64,000 bases of DNA, taken from NCBI RefSeq assembly GCF_053078305.1, contig NZ_CP166879.1. One strand, given 5' to 3'. A program made the position numbers. How positions within the stretch are numbered: position 1 is the stretch's first letter; every line of letters begins with the position of its first letter. This document shows positions 38,301 through 44,300 of this stretch, one piece after another.

Positions 38301-41300
38301 CCATCTCAACGCGAGCCACATCTTTTATACGAACAACTGCGCCGTCTGACTGGCTTTTCACGATAATATTTTTGAACTGATCCACCGTCTGCAAGCGAGA
38401 CTGCGCACGTACCGTTGCGGTCAGTTGCTGAGTATTCGGTGAAGACAATGCCCCTATTTTCCCGGCAGTAACCTGCACGTTTTGCGCTTCAATAGCACTT
38501 TGCACGTCTGAAGGCATTAGCGAGTAAGACGCCAGTTTGGCCGGGTCAAGCCAGATGCGCATAGCGTATTCCGCGCCAAAGACTTGCAGACTCCCCACAC
38601 CTTCAACACGCGCCAGCGGGTCCTGAACGTTACTAACCAACCAGTCGGCGATATCCGAACTGGAGGCTTTGTCAGTGGTGTCATACACGGCAGCAATCAG
38701 CAAAAAGTTGCTTTGTGATTTCTCCACCGTAACACCCGTTTGCTGCACTTCGCTGGGTAGGCGCGACTCCGCCTGCTGAATTTTATTCTGCACCTGAACC
38801 TGTGCAGTATCTGGATCGGTACCTTGTTCAAAGGTCACATTAATACTGACCGAACCATCAGAGCTGCTGGTTGAGCTGAAATAGAGTCAATTATCAAGCC
38901 CAGTGAGTTGTTGCTCGATAACCTGAGTCACGCTGTTCTCCAGCGTTTCGGCAGAAGCACCAGTATAAGTGGCTGAAATTTTAATGGTCGGTGGCGCAAC
39001 GTCAGGATATTGCGCGACGGGCAATGTGCGAATAGCCAGAATCCCCGCCAACATAATCAAAATGGCGATAACCCAGGCAAAGACCGGGCGGCGAACAAAA
39101 AAGCGCGAAAACATCAGGCGTTGCCTCCATTAGCCTGAACTTCAACAGCCTTGACCGTCTGCCCTGAAGTGACTTTTGCAGAACCTTCAACAATCAGTCG
39201 GTCGCCGCTGTGCAGGCCGTTTAGCACCAGCCATTTATCACCATATGTTTCTCCCGTTTCGAGCGTTCGCTGCTCTACTTTATTGTCTTTATTCACCACC
39301 AGCGCAGTTGCATTGCCTTTAGCATCGCGCGTGACGCCCTGTTGCGGCGCGAGAATAGCGTCTTCCATCACGCCTTCATCGACACGAGCGCGAACAAACA
39401 TTCCCGGTAATAATTGCTGTTGTGGATTGGGGAAAATCGCCCGTAATGTCACCGAACCGGTAGACTCATCTACAGCGACTTCGGTAAGTTCCAGACGCCC
39501 TTTTTCGCTGTAGGTTGTGCCATCTTCCAGAATAAGTGAGACGCTCATGGTGTCACTGTTGGTCGCCAGTGACTGTTTACGCAGACGTAATAAATCGACA
39601 CTGGAGCGAGTGAGGTCGACATACATTGTATCCAGACCACGAATAGTCGTTAACGCTGTATCTTGCGACGCGGTCACCAGTGCGCCAGGGGTTACCGACG
39701 AAATGCCAATGCGCCCTGAAATCGGTGCGGTTACCGTGGTCCAGTCAAGATTAATGCGCGCAGTTTCCAGTGCGGCTTTTTTCGCCTCTACACTGGCTTT
39801 ATCTTGTGCACAGGTAGACTGAGCATCATCAGCATCCTGTTGTGAAACACCGTTCTCTTTCACCAGTCGGGCATAACGCTGCGCTTTCTGGCAATCGGCT
39901 TTTACCAGTGCCTGTGCTTGTTGTAATGCTGCCCGAGCTTCATTCCATGCAGCCTGATAACTGGCCGCATCAATCTGGTAGAGCGGCTGTCCAGCCTTGA
40001 CCAGATCACCTTCCTTAAATAAGCGTTTCTGGATAATTCCCCCAACCTGCGGACGTACTTCGGCACTGAGCGCAGCACTGGTGCGTCCGGTTAATTCACT
40101 GACTACCGAGACCGGTTGAGATTTGACTGTAACAACGCCGACTTCTGTTTCTGACGGGGATGAATTGTTACTTTGCGTATTATCACAACCAGATAAGAGC
40201 AGCATTGCCACTACAGATGTTGCTATATACTTCATTATTTTCTCCAGGGTGAGAAATACCCTCCTCATTAAAATTAATGAGGATATGTCAGGGATATTCA
40301 GTTATAACGAACCCGCATCGCGAAATGAATTTCGCAATGAAATAAGGGGGATTAATATCCCCCGCTATTGGTTAATTCTGTTCTTATTTATTTATCAACA
40401 TACTAACAATATCCTGATATATTTCCTGCAGATGTTGTGGATCGCTTTTTTGCGGTGTTAAACGACGATAAACCGTACCTTCCATCATGGTAGCAAACAC
40501 TTCAACGCAGCAACGAATGTGCTCGTCGCTAAGATGGGGATGCATTCTTTTCATATGTGCACAACCGTTAGCGAACATTCTGGCGTCAGCTTCTTCAAGC
40601 ATTGCCATAACCCGCGGGTTGCGTGTGGCTTCTGCAGCCACTTCCAGCATCAGCGCGTCGTCGTCCTCATTTAAGGATTTACGCAAGGCAAGGACTTCCG
40701 GGAAGTGATCGGTACGCGCGTCAATGTCCATTTGGGCAATACGAAAGTCGATGATACGGCGAACCATCTCTTCAATAATGGCGTCTTTGTTGGCGAAGTA
40801 ACGATATATCTGACCCACGCTAAGCTGAGCTTCGCTGGCAATTTGCGACATACTGGCGGCATGAAACCCGCAGCGACGAAAACACCGACGGGCGGCGTTA
40901 ATGATTTCATCCTGACGCTGTTTGTGGCGTATCTCCAGCTTGCTGGTCATTTCTGTCTCCTGGCCTATCATTTGGTGAGAATGATCGTTCTCATTTTTGC
41001 TGATTATACGTTTCTCCAAAGTAATGGAAAGTATTTTTAACTTATTCATGGTGCATATTCTGATAATGAAGAGATTGTGGAGATTCTGTGAAGATAGTTG
41101 ACAATATTAAGTTGGGGTAAATTCATCAGAAAGGCAGCTACTTGTTGTCGCCAGTTCTGTTTTCATCATCAAAATTATCGGAGCTAATACGAATAGTTTC
41201 ATAGTCAGATTCTATAAGATATTTCCCCAACCTACCCCTTGCAGGCGTCAAGAGTAGATAACGCAAAATGCTCTGTACCGCAGCTTCTCTCCGGTACAGA

Positions 41301-44300
41301 AAGCGCAACTATAGCCACCCACAGCCAGGTTGATTATAATAACCGTTTATCTGTTCGTACTGTTTACTAAAACGACGAATCGCCTGATTTTCAGGCACAA
41401 CAAGCATCAACAATAAGGATTAAAGCTATGGGTTTTCTTTCCGGTAAGCGCATTCTGGTAACCGGTGTTGCCAGCAAACTGTCCATCGCCTACGGTATCG
41501 CTCAGGCGATGCACCGCGAAGGAGCTGAACTGGCATTCACCTACCAGAACGACAAACTGAAAGGCCGCGTAGAAGAATTTGCCGCTCAATTGGGTTCTGA
41601 CATCGTTCTGCAATGCGATGTGGCCGAAGATGCCAGCATCGACACCATGTTCGCTGAACTGGGGAAAGTTTGGCCGAAGTTTGACGGTTTCGTACACTCT
41701 ATTGGTTTTGCACCTGGCGATCAGCTGGATGGTGACTATGTTAACGCCGTTACTCGTGAAGGCTTCAAAATTGCCCACGACATCAGCTCCTACAGCTTCG
41801 TTGCAATGGCAAAAGCTTGCCGCTCCATGCTGAATCCGGGTTCTGCCCTGCTGACCCTTTCCTACCTTGGCGCTGAGCGCGCTATCCCGAACTACAACGT
41901 TATGGGTCTGGCAAAAGCGTCTCTGGAAGCGAACGTGCGCTATATGGCGAACGCGATGGGTCCGGAAGGTGTGCGTGTTAACGCCATCTCTGCTGGTCCG
42001 ATCCGTACTCTGGCGGCCTCCGGTATCAAAGACTTCCGCAAAATGCTGGCTCATTGCGAAGCCGTTACCCCGATTCGCCGTACCGTTACTATTGAAGATG
42101 TGGGTAACTCTGCGGCATTCCTGTGCTCCGATCTCTCTGCCGGTATCTCCGGTGAAGTGGTCCACGTTGACGGCGGTTTCAGCATTGCTGCAATGAACGA
42201 ACTCGAACTGAAATAATCGTTCTGTTGGTAAAGATGGGCGGCGTTCTGCCGCCCGTTATCTCTGTTATACCTTTCTGATATTTGTTATCGCCGATCCGTC
42301 TTTCTCCCCTTCCCGCCTTGCGTCAGGATAACGATTTCCTTTACGACCAAGGAGCGCCCATGGAACAACGCCACATCACCGGCAAAAGCCACTGGTATCA
42401 TGAAACGCAATCCAGTACTACGGAGTATGACGTTCTGCCTCTGGTCCCGGAAGCCGCAAAGGTCAGCGATCCCTTTCTACTCGACGTGATCCTTGAAAAA
42501 GAAACGCTGGCCCCCTTCCTTTCATGGCTGGACCCTGCGCGTGTTCTTGCAGTGGAGTTGTTCCCTGACCAGCTTACCGTGACCCGTTCACAGACCTTCA
42601 CCGCTTATGAACGCTTGTCGACGGCCCTGACGGTTGCTCAGGTTTGCGGCGTCCAGCGGTTATGTAACTACTATTCGGCGCGACTTACGCCGCTCCCCGG
42701 GCCTGATTCCACCAGGGAAAGTAATCATCGGTTGGCACAAATCACGCAATATGCCCGCCAACTGGCTAGCTCGCCTTCTATTATCGACAACCGATCGCGC
42801 CAGCATCTGAATGACGTCGGTCTTACTGCCTGGGACTGTGTGATCATTAACCAAATCATTGGTTTTATTGGCTTTCAGGCGCGGACAATTGCGACATTTC
42901 AGGCTTATCTCGGGCATCCGGTACGCTGGTTACCCGGGCTGGAGATACAAAACTACGCCGACGCGTCACTGTTTGCTGATGAATCATTACGCTGGCGAAG
43001 CAGCTATGAGGTGGAAAAACTACCTGAAGAACACACAAAAAGTTCAACTGCAGAACTTTGCCAACTGGCCGAAATACTCTCTCTCCACCCTATTTCACTT
43101 TCCCTTCTCGAAAGGTTGTTAAACAGCACACGGGTTAATACACAGCCGGATAATCAGCTTGCGGCGTTGTTATGCGCGCGTATAAATGGCAGTCCTGCTT
43201 GTTTTGCCACCTGTATGGATTCATCAAATGAATATAAAAAAATCAGCACCCTTCTGCGCAAGGGCGAAAATGAAATTAACCAATGGGCTGACCGTCATTC
43301 TGTTGAGCGCGCTACCGTTCAGGCGATACAATGGCTGACCCGAGCACCCGATCGCTTTAGCGCCGCCCAGTTCAGCCCTTTACTCGAACACGAAAAATCA
43401 TCAACGCAGATTATTAATCTGCTGGTATGGAGCGGGCTGTGTGGCTGGATAAATCGCTTAAAAATCGCGTTGGGTGAGACATATTAACCTTGCCGCGTCA
43501 GACAGATTCGCGTAAAACTGTCAGCCGCTCTAATGGCCACCAAAATAGACAATTATGTTTCAGGACAACCCGCTGCTAGCGCAGCTTAAACAGCAACTGC
43601 ATTCCCAGACGCCACGCGCTGAAGGGGTGGTAAAAGCCACAGAAAAAGGCTTTGGCTTCCTGGAAGTCGACGCGCAAAAAAGTTATTTCATTCCGCCGCC
43701 GCAGATGAAAAAAGTCATGCATGGCGACCGAATTATCGCGGTGATCCACAGTGAAAAAGAACGTGAATCCGCAGAGCCAGAAGAACTGGTTGAACCGTTC
43801 CTGACTCGTTTCGTGGGTAAAGTTCAGGGCAAAAATGACCGTCTGGCCATCGTTCCTGATCATCCACTCTTAAAAGACGCCATTCCTTGCCGCGCAGCCC
43901 GTGGCCTGAACCACGAGTTTAAAGAAGGCGACTGGGCGGTTGCCGAAATGCGCCGTCATCCGCTGAAAGGCGATCGTTCTTTCTATGCTGAACTGACACA
44001 ATACATCACTTTTGGTGACGACCACTTTGTACCGTGGTGGGTTACACTTGCGCGCCATAATCTGGAAAAAGAAGCACCAGACGGCGTCGCTACCGAAATG
44101 CTCGATGAAGGTCTGGTTCGTGAAGATCTGACCGCGCTGGATTTTGTCACCATCGACAGTGCCAGCACAGAAGATATGGATGACGCCCTTTTCGCTAAGG
44201 CGTTGCCGGATGACAAACTTCAGCTGATTGTGGCGATTGCCGATCCAACCGCGTGGATTGCTGAAGGCAGCAAGCTGGACAAAGCCGCGAAAATTCGCGC

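Follow-up and report, generated by a model that had tools for sequence, protein, structure and literature searches.

The window, that is, the whole 64-kb stretch of DNA that was analysed, carries a TetR/AcrR regulator gene transcribed leftwards from 40950 and fabI transcribed rightwards from 41428, which makes the 477 bp between them (40951-41427) a divergent promoter region, in agreement with the gap of about 480 bp given in an earlier note on this DNA. The features on which the analysis bears are as follows, each with its supporting evidence in brackets.

33415-33451, no strand assigned: left-hand junction, a hairpin just after the sapF stop codon (blastn and direct comparison with the K-12-like L002)
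40384-40950, minus strand: coding sequence of the TetR/AcrR regulator, 188 aa, first gene of a TetR-MFP-RND-OMF-MFS operon (PGAP, homologues)
40976-40993, no strand assigned: candidate TetR operator, an 18-bp palindrome TGAGAATGATCGTTCTCA with consensus TGAGAAYGATCRTTCTCA (conservation)
41003-41030, minus strand: predicted sigma-70 promoter of the TetR-efflux operon (consensus scan, 10/12)
41110-41271, no strand assigned: lineage-variable spacer with no recognisable element (comparison with Escherichia sp. L008 and E. albertii; no Rfam match)
41272-41300, no strand assigned: the reported stem-loop, a perfect 9-bp inverted repeat (sequence, repeat count, fold)
41278-41304, no strand assigned: junction zone between the efflux and K-12 ycjD haplotypes (alignments, blastn)
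41305-41427, plus strand: conserved fabI core promoter with a leader of ~80 nt (consensus scan, genome comparison)
41428-42216, plus strand: fabI, enoyl-ACP reductase, 262 aa (ORF, RefSeq annotation of identical loci)

No conserved ORF was found between the TetR start and fabI, and two short ORFs at 41138-41308 (minus strand) and 41239-41370 (plus strand) were discarded as they are broken by the indels that this region carries in other lineages. On the fabI side, the predicted sigma-70 promoter consists of a -35 element TAGCCA (41312-41317), a 17-nt spacer and a -10 element TATAAT (41335-41340), scoring 10/12 in the scan, and the leader carries a Shine-Dalgarno sequence AAGGA at 41415-41419. 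Of 5426 complete E. coli genomes, 5420 contain the whole block 41305-41427 with an identity of 95-100%, and E. albertii and L008 have it in almost the same form, which bears out the earlier reading of this sequence as the native fabI promoter and leader.

Predicted promoter and candidate operator of the efflux operon

Three starts had been proposed for the TetR gene, of which only the ATG at 40950, with GGAG upstream at 40958-40961, is retained. PGAP places the start identically in PE164, M24, P4 and EDL933, and homologues in other genera have a comparable length of ~189 aa; the start at 40971 was rejected on the grounds that its ATG reads TAG in L008, and that at 41049 on the grounds that a 1-nt indel near 40999 in E. 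albertii breaks the frame. The regulator contains a TetR_N domain (PF00440). Its predicted promoter combines a -35 element TTTCCA (41030-41025) with a -10 element TATAAT (41008-41003) across a 16-nt spacer; both E. albertii and L008 have conserved the -10 element together with the bases on either side of it.

The 18-bp palindrome at 40976-40993 lies 10 nt downstream of this -10 element and ahead of the TetR Shine-Dalgarno sequence. Its consensus TGAGAAYGATCRTTCTCA is invariant or nearly so in E. coli, E. albertii, Escherichia sp. L008, Enterobacter hormaechei and Phytobacter while its flanks diverge, and no other stretch upstream of TetR is so conserved across these five lineages, in which the cassette sits beside three different and unrelated loci. 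Variant alleles of 40976-40993 shift toward the perfect palindrome. The site thus shows what is expected of a TetR-family operator, namely a palindrome of ~15-20 bp at the operon promoter that is conserved among orthologous cassettes, and from this pattern of conservation it is likely to be the TetR operator, with binding as the inferred step. The regulator would then most likely bind 40976-40993 and repress its own operon. Operons of the AcrR-acrAB and TtgR-ttgABC type are similar in that a TetR_N regulator adjoins MFP, RND and OMF genes and a palindrome (here of 18 bp) lies at the promoter; they differ in that the regulator is here co-transcribed with the pump genes in the same direction rather than divergently, and in that a fifth gene, for an MFS transporter, ends the operon. 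In the strain of the window the pump itself is broken by a nonsense codon in the RND gene and a frameshift in the OMF gene.

Two haplotypes between sapF and fabI

Two alternative segments occupy the interval between sapF and fabI in E. coli: a 7.8-kb TetR-RND efflux cassette, present in ~38% of 5426 complete genomes, and a 0.6-kb segment of ycjD and GC-rich repeats, the K-12-type arrangement, present in ~62%. At the left-hand junction, both haplotypes keep the stem of the hairpin behind sapF (ACCTCATCCTGA, a 13-nt loop, TCAGGATGAGGT), and the sequences part beyond it. A mobile genomic island was rejected as an account of the cassette: the efflux block holds no annotated integrase or IS, its genes being only TetR, MFP, RND, OMF and MFS; no tRNA was found within 32000-43000; and the left and right junctions have no repeat of at least 7 nt in common. 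A search of plasmids returned E. coli matches that were chromosome-sized or fragment records and uninformative on the junction. The locus resembles other strain-variable regions of E. coli, which arise as replacement or indel polymorphisms, in presenting alternative segments between conserved genes with sharp junctions. It differs from them in the lack of mobility hallmarks, in that the larger segment is probably ancestral, and in that the right junction grades over ~27 bp of diverged homology instead of breaking cleanly.

The direction of change was judged from two outgroup genomes. In E. albertii the TetR-efflux genes adjoin fabI and are colinear at 87.6% over 6.8 kb, and in L008, a second species at ~88% DNA identity, TetR (98% aa identity) and MFP adjoin fabI. 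Since both also have TetR-efflux beside fabI, this sequence comparison indicates that the efflux-next-to-fabI arrangement is probably the ancestral state and the ycjD arrangement of K-12 the derived one. The earlier note had implied that the efflux block was inserted beside a native fabI; the reverse, in which the ancestral cassette would have been replaced by ycjD and GC-rich repeats, is more likely.

On the right-hand side, K-12-type genomes match the window strongly from 41305 (megablast), and a gapped and much more diverged homology reaches back to 41278 (blastn). The residual similarity in 41278-41304 has a shuffling p of ~0.003 and is collinear, if weak, with CCGCAGC and CTCCGGT common to both haplotypes. 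From these two limits it follows that the 5' arm of the stem-loop is mostly haplotype-specific and that the 3' arm belongs to the zone which both haplotypes share in diverged form; the hairpin is accordingly not identical to K-12 sequence deep in conserved DNA, the outcome that the earlier note had named as counting against a junction here. L008, which has unrelated DNA in place of 41110-41297, rejoins the window at 41298, and E. albertii carries indels of 32 nt and 8 nt within 41110-41271. The K-12-type and L008 breaks all sit on the upstream margin of the conserved fabI core promoter.

Were breaks spread evenly along the 477 bp, two independent ones (41278 and 41298) would fall inside one 29-bp palindrome with a chance of ~0.004. 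This coincidence invites the explanation that the palindrome is a recombination hotspot or its relic, a cruciform or hairpin at 41272-41300 having stimulated breakage or illegitimate joining, the more so as the left junction likewise lies at a hairpin, the sapF terminator. We regard that explanation as unlikely. A 9-bp stem around an 11-nt loop has little tendency to form a cruciform, E. albertii and the majority of E. coli carriers have the repeat in degenerate form, no repeat is common to both junctions, and no integrase, IS or tRNA accompanies them. Moreover, selection alone predicts breaks just upstream of the promoter of an essential gene: any replacement upstream of fabI would have to spare the fabI promoter, so that homology breaks would accumulate immediately before the -35 element, and this is probably why the repeat coincides with the junction. 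Such a promoter-edge explanation of the clustered breaks is plausible. The suggestion that the hairpin is a relic of the junction therefore stands insofar as the repeat does lie on the junction, and is not supported insofar as it makes the repeat a relic or agent of the exchange, given that the stem is imperfect in most carriers, degenerate in E. albertii and without covariation, and that the junctions share no repeat.

The inverted repeat at 41272-41300

The repeat is formed by the arms TCTGTACCG (41272-41280) and CGGTACAGA (41292-41300) around a loop of 11 nt. The hairpin first described, CTGTACCG-CAGCTTCTCTC-CGGTACAG, is present as written at 41273-41299, 7 nt to the right of the 41266-41292 originally assigned to it, and the additional pair T41272-A41300 extends its stem to a perfect 9 bp. 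A 53-nt piece, picked only after the repeat had been seen, folds with -15.4 kcal/mol on the plus strand and -20.2 kcal/mol on the minus strand (z ~-3). Counting only perfect inverted repeats whose arms have 8 bp or more and whose loops have 3-20 nt, we found 25 in the 64-kb window compared with 18.6 ± 4.8 in first-order Markov simulations, and 14% of simulated 477-bp regions contained at least one such repeat; the repeat at 41272-41300 is therefore not beyond chance. With about twenty comparable palindromes expected by chance per such window, the hairpin itself carries little weight.

Nor is the repeat conserved among genomes. The perfect stem allele occurs in 566 E. coli genomes, and 1245 of the ~2039 E. 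coli carriers have the G41294C allele, which leaves an uncompensated C·C mismatch. E. albertii, with the same gene arrangement, keeps 5/8 core pairs and has three arm substitutions, none of them compensatory. In an alignment of five sequences, covariation in the stem was no better than in shuffles: the covariation score was 0.156 versus 0.130 ± 0.043 for shuffled alignments, 127 of 500 shuffles scored as high, and the only double changes came from K-12 rows, which lack the stem. Because the perfect allele shares G41294 with the K-12-type sequence, E. coli may originally have had the perfect stem, conceivably with a function that the majority lineage has since given up.

Several known identities were rejected. 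A search against Rfam of 38500-43000 at permissive thresholds gave no match overlapping 40951-41427, even at E-values up to 10; lacking both an Rfam match and covariation, the element was not taken for a structured RNA. A 49-nt probe over the repeat hit a single place per genome in 2039 genomes, and no second copy was found in the window, so a dispersed repeat family (REP/BIME, box C, ERIC or MITE ends) was set aside for an element that is single-copy per genome. A LexA box has its CTGT and ACAG at a spacing of 8 nt, and the corresponding spacing in the repeat is 19 nt. Nor was the hairpin called by a terminator scan of 40300-42400 that required a G+C-rich stem, a loop of 3-8 nt and, directly afterwards, a run of at least five T, and a Rho-independent terminator was rejected. 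The hairpin does resemble such terminators as a GC-containing stem-loop in intergenic DNA, but its loop has 11 nt and its tails, AAGCGCAAC on the plus strand and GCATTTTGCG with 4 T on the minus strand, provide no U-tract and only 4 U, respectively. It also has no upstream gene on either strand: with TetR running leftwards and fabI rightwards, the earlier note was correct that there is no gene the hairpin could terminate.

A weaker version of this idea would have the hairpin act as a minus-strand terminator or insulator that shields the TetR-efflux promoter from antisense or divergent transcripts arising near the fabI promoter. The minus-strand RNA has the more stable of the two folds, and its stem is followed by GC and then by AUUUUGCGUU, with 4 U. 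Against this, the scan was negative, with the loop outside 3-8 nt and the T-run too short; no minus-strand promoter is predicted to the right of the hairpin within the region; the T-run is conserved and the stem is not; and the stem shows no covariation. We consider such a role extremely improbable; most likely the repeat is palindromic by accident and has no function in its own right.

Taken together, 40951-41427 is probably a three-part divergent regulatory spacer in which the repeat is fortuitous and beside which the K-12 arrangement is derived. The TetR-proximal ~160 bp would hold the minus-strand promoter of the TetR-MFP-RND-OMF-MFS operon and its 18-bp operator; the fabI-proximal 123 bp (41305-41427), almost invariant in all Escherichia examined, would hold the fabI core promoter and leader; and the part between (~41110-41304) would be an unconstrained, lineage-variable spacer that happens to contain the 9-bp inverted repeat.

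A FadR-like box at the fabI promoter

FadR recognizes the core consensus CTGGTCnGACC(T/A)G within a 17-bp palindrome aaCTGGTCnGACC(T/A)Gtt (PMC9329746). FadR operators lie at the activated fab promoters fabA and fabB, with fabI reported by My et al. 2015 (as cited in PMC6339880 and PMC8115981), and according to PMC8115981, which cites RegulonDB, the fabI promoter contains a FadR site ~115 nt ahead of the ATG. K-12-type genomes carry a FadR-box-like CTCCGGTCGGACCTGGC where the window reads CTCCGGTACAGAAAGCG. The K-12-type CCGGTCgGACCTG agrees with 11/12 specified core positions and is centred at ~-48 from the predicted fabI start, a near-consensus box at the fabI promoter; in contrast, of the two half-sites only the left one, CCGGT or a variant, is retained in the window, E. 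albertii and L008, where (A)GAAAG(C/A)G stands instead of GGACCTGG. A FadR site in the window was rejected, since CCGGTACAGAAAG agrees with 6/12 of the specified core positions and its right half is gone.

We relied on the published consensus for these comparisons because a 7-site FadR PWM proved weak, giving the K-12 box only 7.3 bits, a score reached by 19 window 17-mers, and awarding 11.3 bits to AGCTAATACGAATAGTT at 41182, which is without the TGG core. By the same PWM, the best score at the junction site of the window lay below those reported. Position 1,345,411 of BW25113, the first base of the FadR site according to PMC8115981, is T and not G, and its distance from the K-12 box is 8 nt measured to the 13-nt core and 4 nt measured to the 17-mer; PMC8115981 thus supports the location only approximately. 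A literature text search for the box sequence returned unrelated papers only.

The palindrome occupies the very place of the K-12 FadR-like box, which raises the question whether, in strains of the efflux haplotype, a dimeric regulator binds CTGTACCG-N11-CGGTACAG itself and tunes either fabI or the divergent efflux operon. Its dyad symmetry is perfect in 566 genomes, and its centre at 41286 falls at ~-61 from the fabI start predicted from the -10 element at 41335-41340, a class I activator position. Yet the symmetry is broken by the majority allele and at three positions in E. albertii, the fit to FadR is as poor as the 6/12 core positions and lost right half imply, the CTGT/ACAG spacing is 19 rather than the 8 of a LexA box, and no known motif was recognised. 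A regulator site is thus highly unlikely, and we retain the fortuitous palindrome.

The difference in the FadR box itself leads to a more tentative proposal, made from sequence comparison, that FadR control of fabI may be strain-variable, with a near-consensus box (~-48) only in the ycjD haplotype (~62%), probably by way of the replacement of the efflux cassette. That replacement would have brought or created the FadR-box-like sequence at ~-48 of the fabI promoter, leaving the haplotype of the window without it. In strains of the efflux haplotype (~38%, including O157:H7 and ST131-type strains), the right arm of the palindrome and AGAAAGCG stand at the place of the FadR box; with no near-consensus box there, direct FadR activation of fabI may be absent from these strains.

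The analysis maps exactly where a common E. coli locus polymorphism begins and ends, and these limits suggest that the K-12 arrangement is derived and not 'native'; it also provides a fixed TetR start and a well-supported predicted operator for an uncharacterised efflux cassette of five genes with a wide distribution among Enterobacteriaceae. fabI is an essential gene and the target of triclosan, and the upstream activating region of its promoter differs between the haplotypes at the K-12 FadR-like box. If the proposal of strain-variable FadR control is true, conclusions on fabI regulation drawn from K-12 would not be transferable to O157:H7 or B2-type strains.

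The TetR-fabI spacer and its inverted repeat

The 477 bp (window 40951-41427) that separate the leftward TetR/AcrR gene from the rightward fabI are best regarded as a spacer between divergent promoters. At the PE164 locus, which carries the same efflux haplotype and is 99.6% identical, the RefSeq order is sapF; MFS, OMF, RND, MFP and TetR on the minus strand; and fabI, yciW and rnb on the plus strand. The elements of the spacer discussed here are as follows.

Features of the spacer between TetR and fabI
40976-40993, candidate TetR operator, an 18-bp palindrome TGAGAATGATCGTTCTCA just downstream of the predicted TetR-operon promoter
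41030-41025 (-35) and 41008-41003 (-10), minus strand, predicted TetR-operon promoter
41273-41280 and 41292-41299, stem-loop arms CTGTACCG and CGGTACAG
41312-41317 (-35, TAGCCA) and 41335-41340 (-10, TATAAT), plus strand, predicted fabI core promoter

The earlier note had described a stem-loop between TetR and fabI; the structure exists, although it lies 7 nt further right than reported, and an extra pair (T41272-A41300) completes a perfect 9-bp stem with an 11-nt loop. Perfect inverted repeats with arms of 8 bp or longer and a 3-20 nt loop number 25 in the window, versus 18.6 ± 4.8 in first-order Markov simulations, and such a repeat is present in 14% of simulated 477-bp regions; the repeat at 41272-41300 is not beyond chance. 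The fold reached -15.4 kcal/mol on the plus strand and -20.2 kcal/mol on the minus strand (z ~ -3), values that apply to a piece picked for containing the repeat. Its sequence is single copy per genome. The stem-loop was not called in a terminator scan, its loop being too long and a T-run absent, and Rfam gave no match in the region, E-values up to 10 included.

A 49-nt probe spanning the repeat found matches in 2039 of 5426 complete E. coli genomes, with the window-identical allele in 566 (O157:H7 strains included) and the allele of M24, another efflux-haplotype strain, in 1245. The M24 allele carries G41294C, which places a C·C mismatch in the stem while the opposite arm is unchanged. Three arm substitutions in E. 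albertii, none of them compensatory, leave five of the eight core pairs, and a formal pair count over five sequences performed no better than shuffles. Neither the E. coli alleles, nor E. albertii, nor the pair count gave any sign of selection for pairing or dyad symmetry at the repeat. We conclude that the repeat is ordinary and probably without function.

Haplotype junctions and the probable older arrangement

The entire spacer was recovered from 2034 genomes. In ~3386 K-12-like genomes the megablast match is limited to window 41305-41427, and the site is occupied by ycjD (DUF559), together with a GC-rich repeat and a duplicated piece of the ycjD 3' end. More sensitive alignment extends K-12 homology to 41278 via a diverged, gapped zone in which CCGCAGC and CTCCGGT are common to both haplotypes, and the residual similarity from 41278 has p ~0.003 by shuffling. 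The junction therefore passes through the repeat, whose 5' arm is mostly haplotype-specific and whose 3' arm falls within diverged shared DNA. Placement of the repeat at the haplotype junction, as the earlier note had it, is borne out. The left junction lies directly after the sapF terminator hairpin (33415-33451), the stem of which is kept in both haplotypes. The left and right junctions have no common repeat of at least 7 nt; no tRNA was found, and the annotation contains no integrase or IS.

In the sapF hairpin, which occupies 4361-4405 of the K-12-like E. coli locus L002, the common stem is CACCTCAT(C/T)CTGA and the loops differ between haplotypes; in K-12 the ycjD GTG start sits within the right arm. 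In the ycjD-fabI spacer of the same locus (L002 4757-4975) the ycjD 3' end recurs as an incomplete second copy (GGAGACGGTGCTGGAGAATATTC...), and there is a GC-rich palindromic repeat (CCCCTCGCCCCTCTGGGGAGAGGGTTAGGGTGAGGGG) resembling dispersed box-C-type elements; the two together suggest that remodelling on the K-12 side was repeat-mediated.

A FabI query with one genome per species scanned returned two other Escherichia lineages, E. albertii and L008, the latter labelled E. coli yet only 88-91% identical in DNA. Both have TetR and MFP immediately upstream of fabI (TetR 96% and 98% amino acid identity, respectively). The gene arrangement of E. albertii is that of the window, colinear at 87.6% over 6.8 kb; in L008, window 41110-41297 is replaced by unrelated DNA and similarity resumes at AGAAAG(A)GCAAC. 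Among the other Enterobacterales, most have sapF abutting fabI with nothing between, Citrobacter and Enterobacter have other DNA inserted there, and Enterobacter hormaechei and Phytobacter carry the same five-gene cassette at unrelated loci. On the simplest reading of the two outgroup genomes, the cassette would already have adjoined fabI before these Escherichia lineages diverged, the K-12 ycjD arrangement would be derived, and (A)GAAAG(C/A)GCAAC just upstream of the -35 would be the older state. With TetR-MFP beside fabI in both outgroups, the exchange likely ran in the reverse of the direction implied by the earlier note.

Homology is lost within 41278-41305 in three lineage comparisons, a zone directly upstream of the fabI -35. 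fabI is an essential gene, and breaks would collect at the upstream edge of its promoter because any tolerated replacement would have to spare the core promoter. The coincidence of the breaks with the repeat could also be put down to a hairpin-driven recombination hotspot, which we consider quite improbable; the promoter-edge explanation is preferred, and we find no support for regarding the hairpin as a relic of the exchange.

TetR start, candidate operator and state of the pump

The TetR start codon, which gives a 188-aa protein, is 40950, the position chosen by PGAP in four strains, and TetR homologues across Enterobacteriaceae are ~189 aa. Two upstream candidates were rejected: for 41049, a 1-nt indel near 40999 in E. 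albertii breaks the frame, and for 40971, the ATG of the window reads TAG in L008. The palindrome at 40976-40993 is the sole invariant block upstream of TetR among E. coli, E. albertii, L008, E. hormaechei and Phytobacter, and the changes in variant E. coli alleles improve its symmetry. This is the phylogenetic footprint that a TetR operator would be expected to leave, and we infer that the regulator would bind there. Upstream of the predicted TetR-operon promoter, a block at 41060-41110 (GATAATGAAGAGATTGTGGAGATTCTGTGAAGAT...CAATATTA) is still recognisable in E. albertii and L008; the efflux operon may have a second regulatory site here.

The window strain has a broken efflux operon: codon 76 of the RND permease gene (36007-39114) is a nonsense codon (L76*), and the OMF gene (34630-36003) carries a +1 A insertion at 35293 that shifts the frame near codon 237. 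Both genes are intact in PE164. O157:H7 EDL933 has an RND frameshift different and independent from the window's lesions, which suggests that pump decay is recurrent.

FadR-like boxes and fabI promoter types

At the site where the window has CTCCGGTACAGAAAGCG, K-12-type genomes have CTCCGGTCGGACCTGGC. Against the FadR consensus aaCTGGTCnGACC(T/A)Gtt (PMC9329746), the K-12 core agrees at 11 of the 12 specified positions and the window core at 6, its right half-site gone. The centre of the K-12 box falls ~48 nt before the fabI start predicted from the -10. Activation of fabI by FadR is attributed, in a passage of PMC6339880, to My et al. (2013, 2015), and a passage of PMC8115981 draws on RegulonDB to put a fabI-promoter FadR site ~115 nt before the ATG; the base cited in that passage does not coincide exactly with the K-12 box identified here. 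A PWM derived from seven sites used as EMSA probes (PMC4259882) gives the K-12 box only 7.3 bits. Genera in which sapF abuts fabI have a FadR-like box of another sequence, AGTGGTCGGATTAAC, roughly one helical turn nearer the -10 (5.7-13.4 bits), and a full FadR box is absent from the efflux haplotype, E. albertii and L008. By the same PWM, AGCTAATACGAATAGTT in the spacer (41182-41198), which is without the TGG core, scores 11.3 bits, and TGCTGGTCCGATCCGTA within the fabI coding sequence (41991-42007) scores 12.6 bits.

Across Enterobacteriaceae (loci L009-L035 and L082) the ~170 nt upstream of fabI are not conserved and fall into at least three unrelated types.

fabI promoter types
Escherichia type
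AGTGGTCGGATTAAC plus GCTAGAAT type, with a FadR-like box at about -38
CGTGACA plus GATATAAT type, with no obvious FadR box

The fabI 5' leader holds a small hairpin, GCCTG-ATTTT-CAGGC (41382-41396), that does not vary among the Escherichia examined and is almost unchanged in Superficieibacter (L030); the leaders of other genera are unrelated to it. Several Klebsiella pneumoniae plasmids (H57-H62, 27-230 kb) carry a fabI copy that matches the window at ~82% identity from a point shortly before the start codon, some under the PLSDB label 'antibiotic resistant fabI'; E. coli 'plasmid' matches are chromosome-sized or fragment records.

The region is otherwise of low interest, and the parts worth a small follow-up are the FadR-box polymorphism and the TetR operator prediction. 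Judged from the sequences compared, direct activation of fabI by FadR may be limited to strains of the ycjD haplotype.
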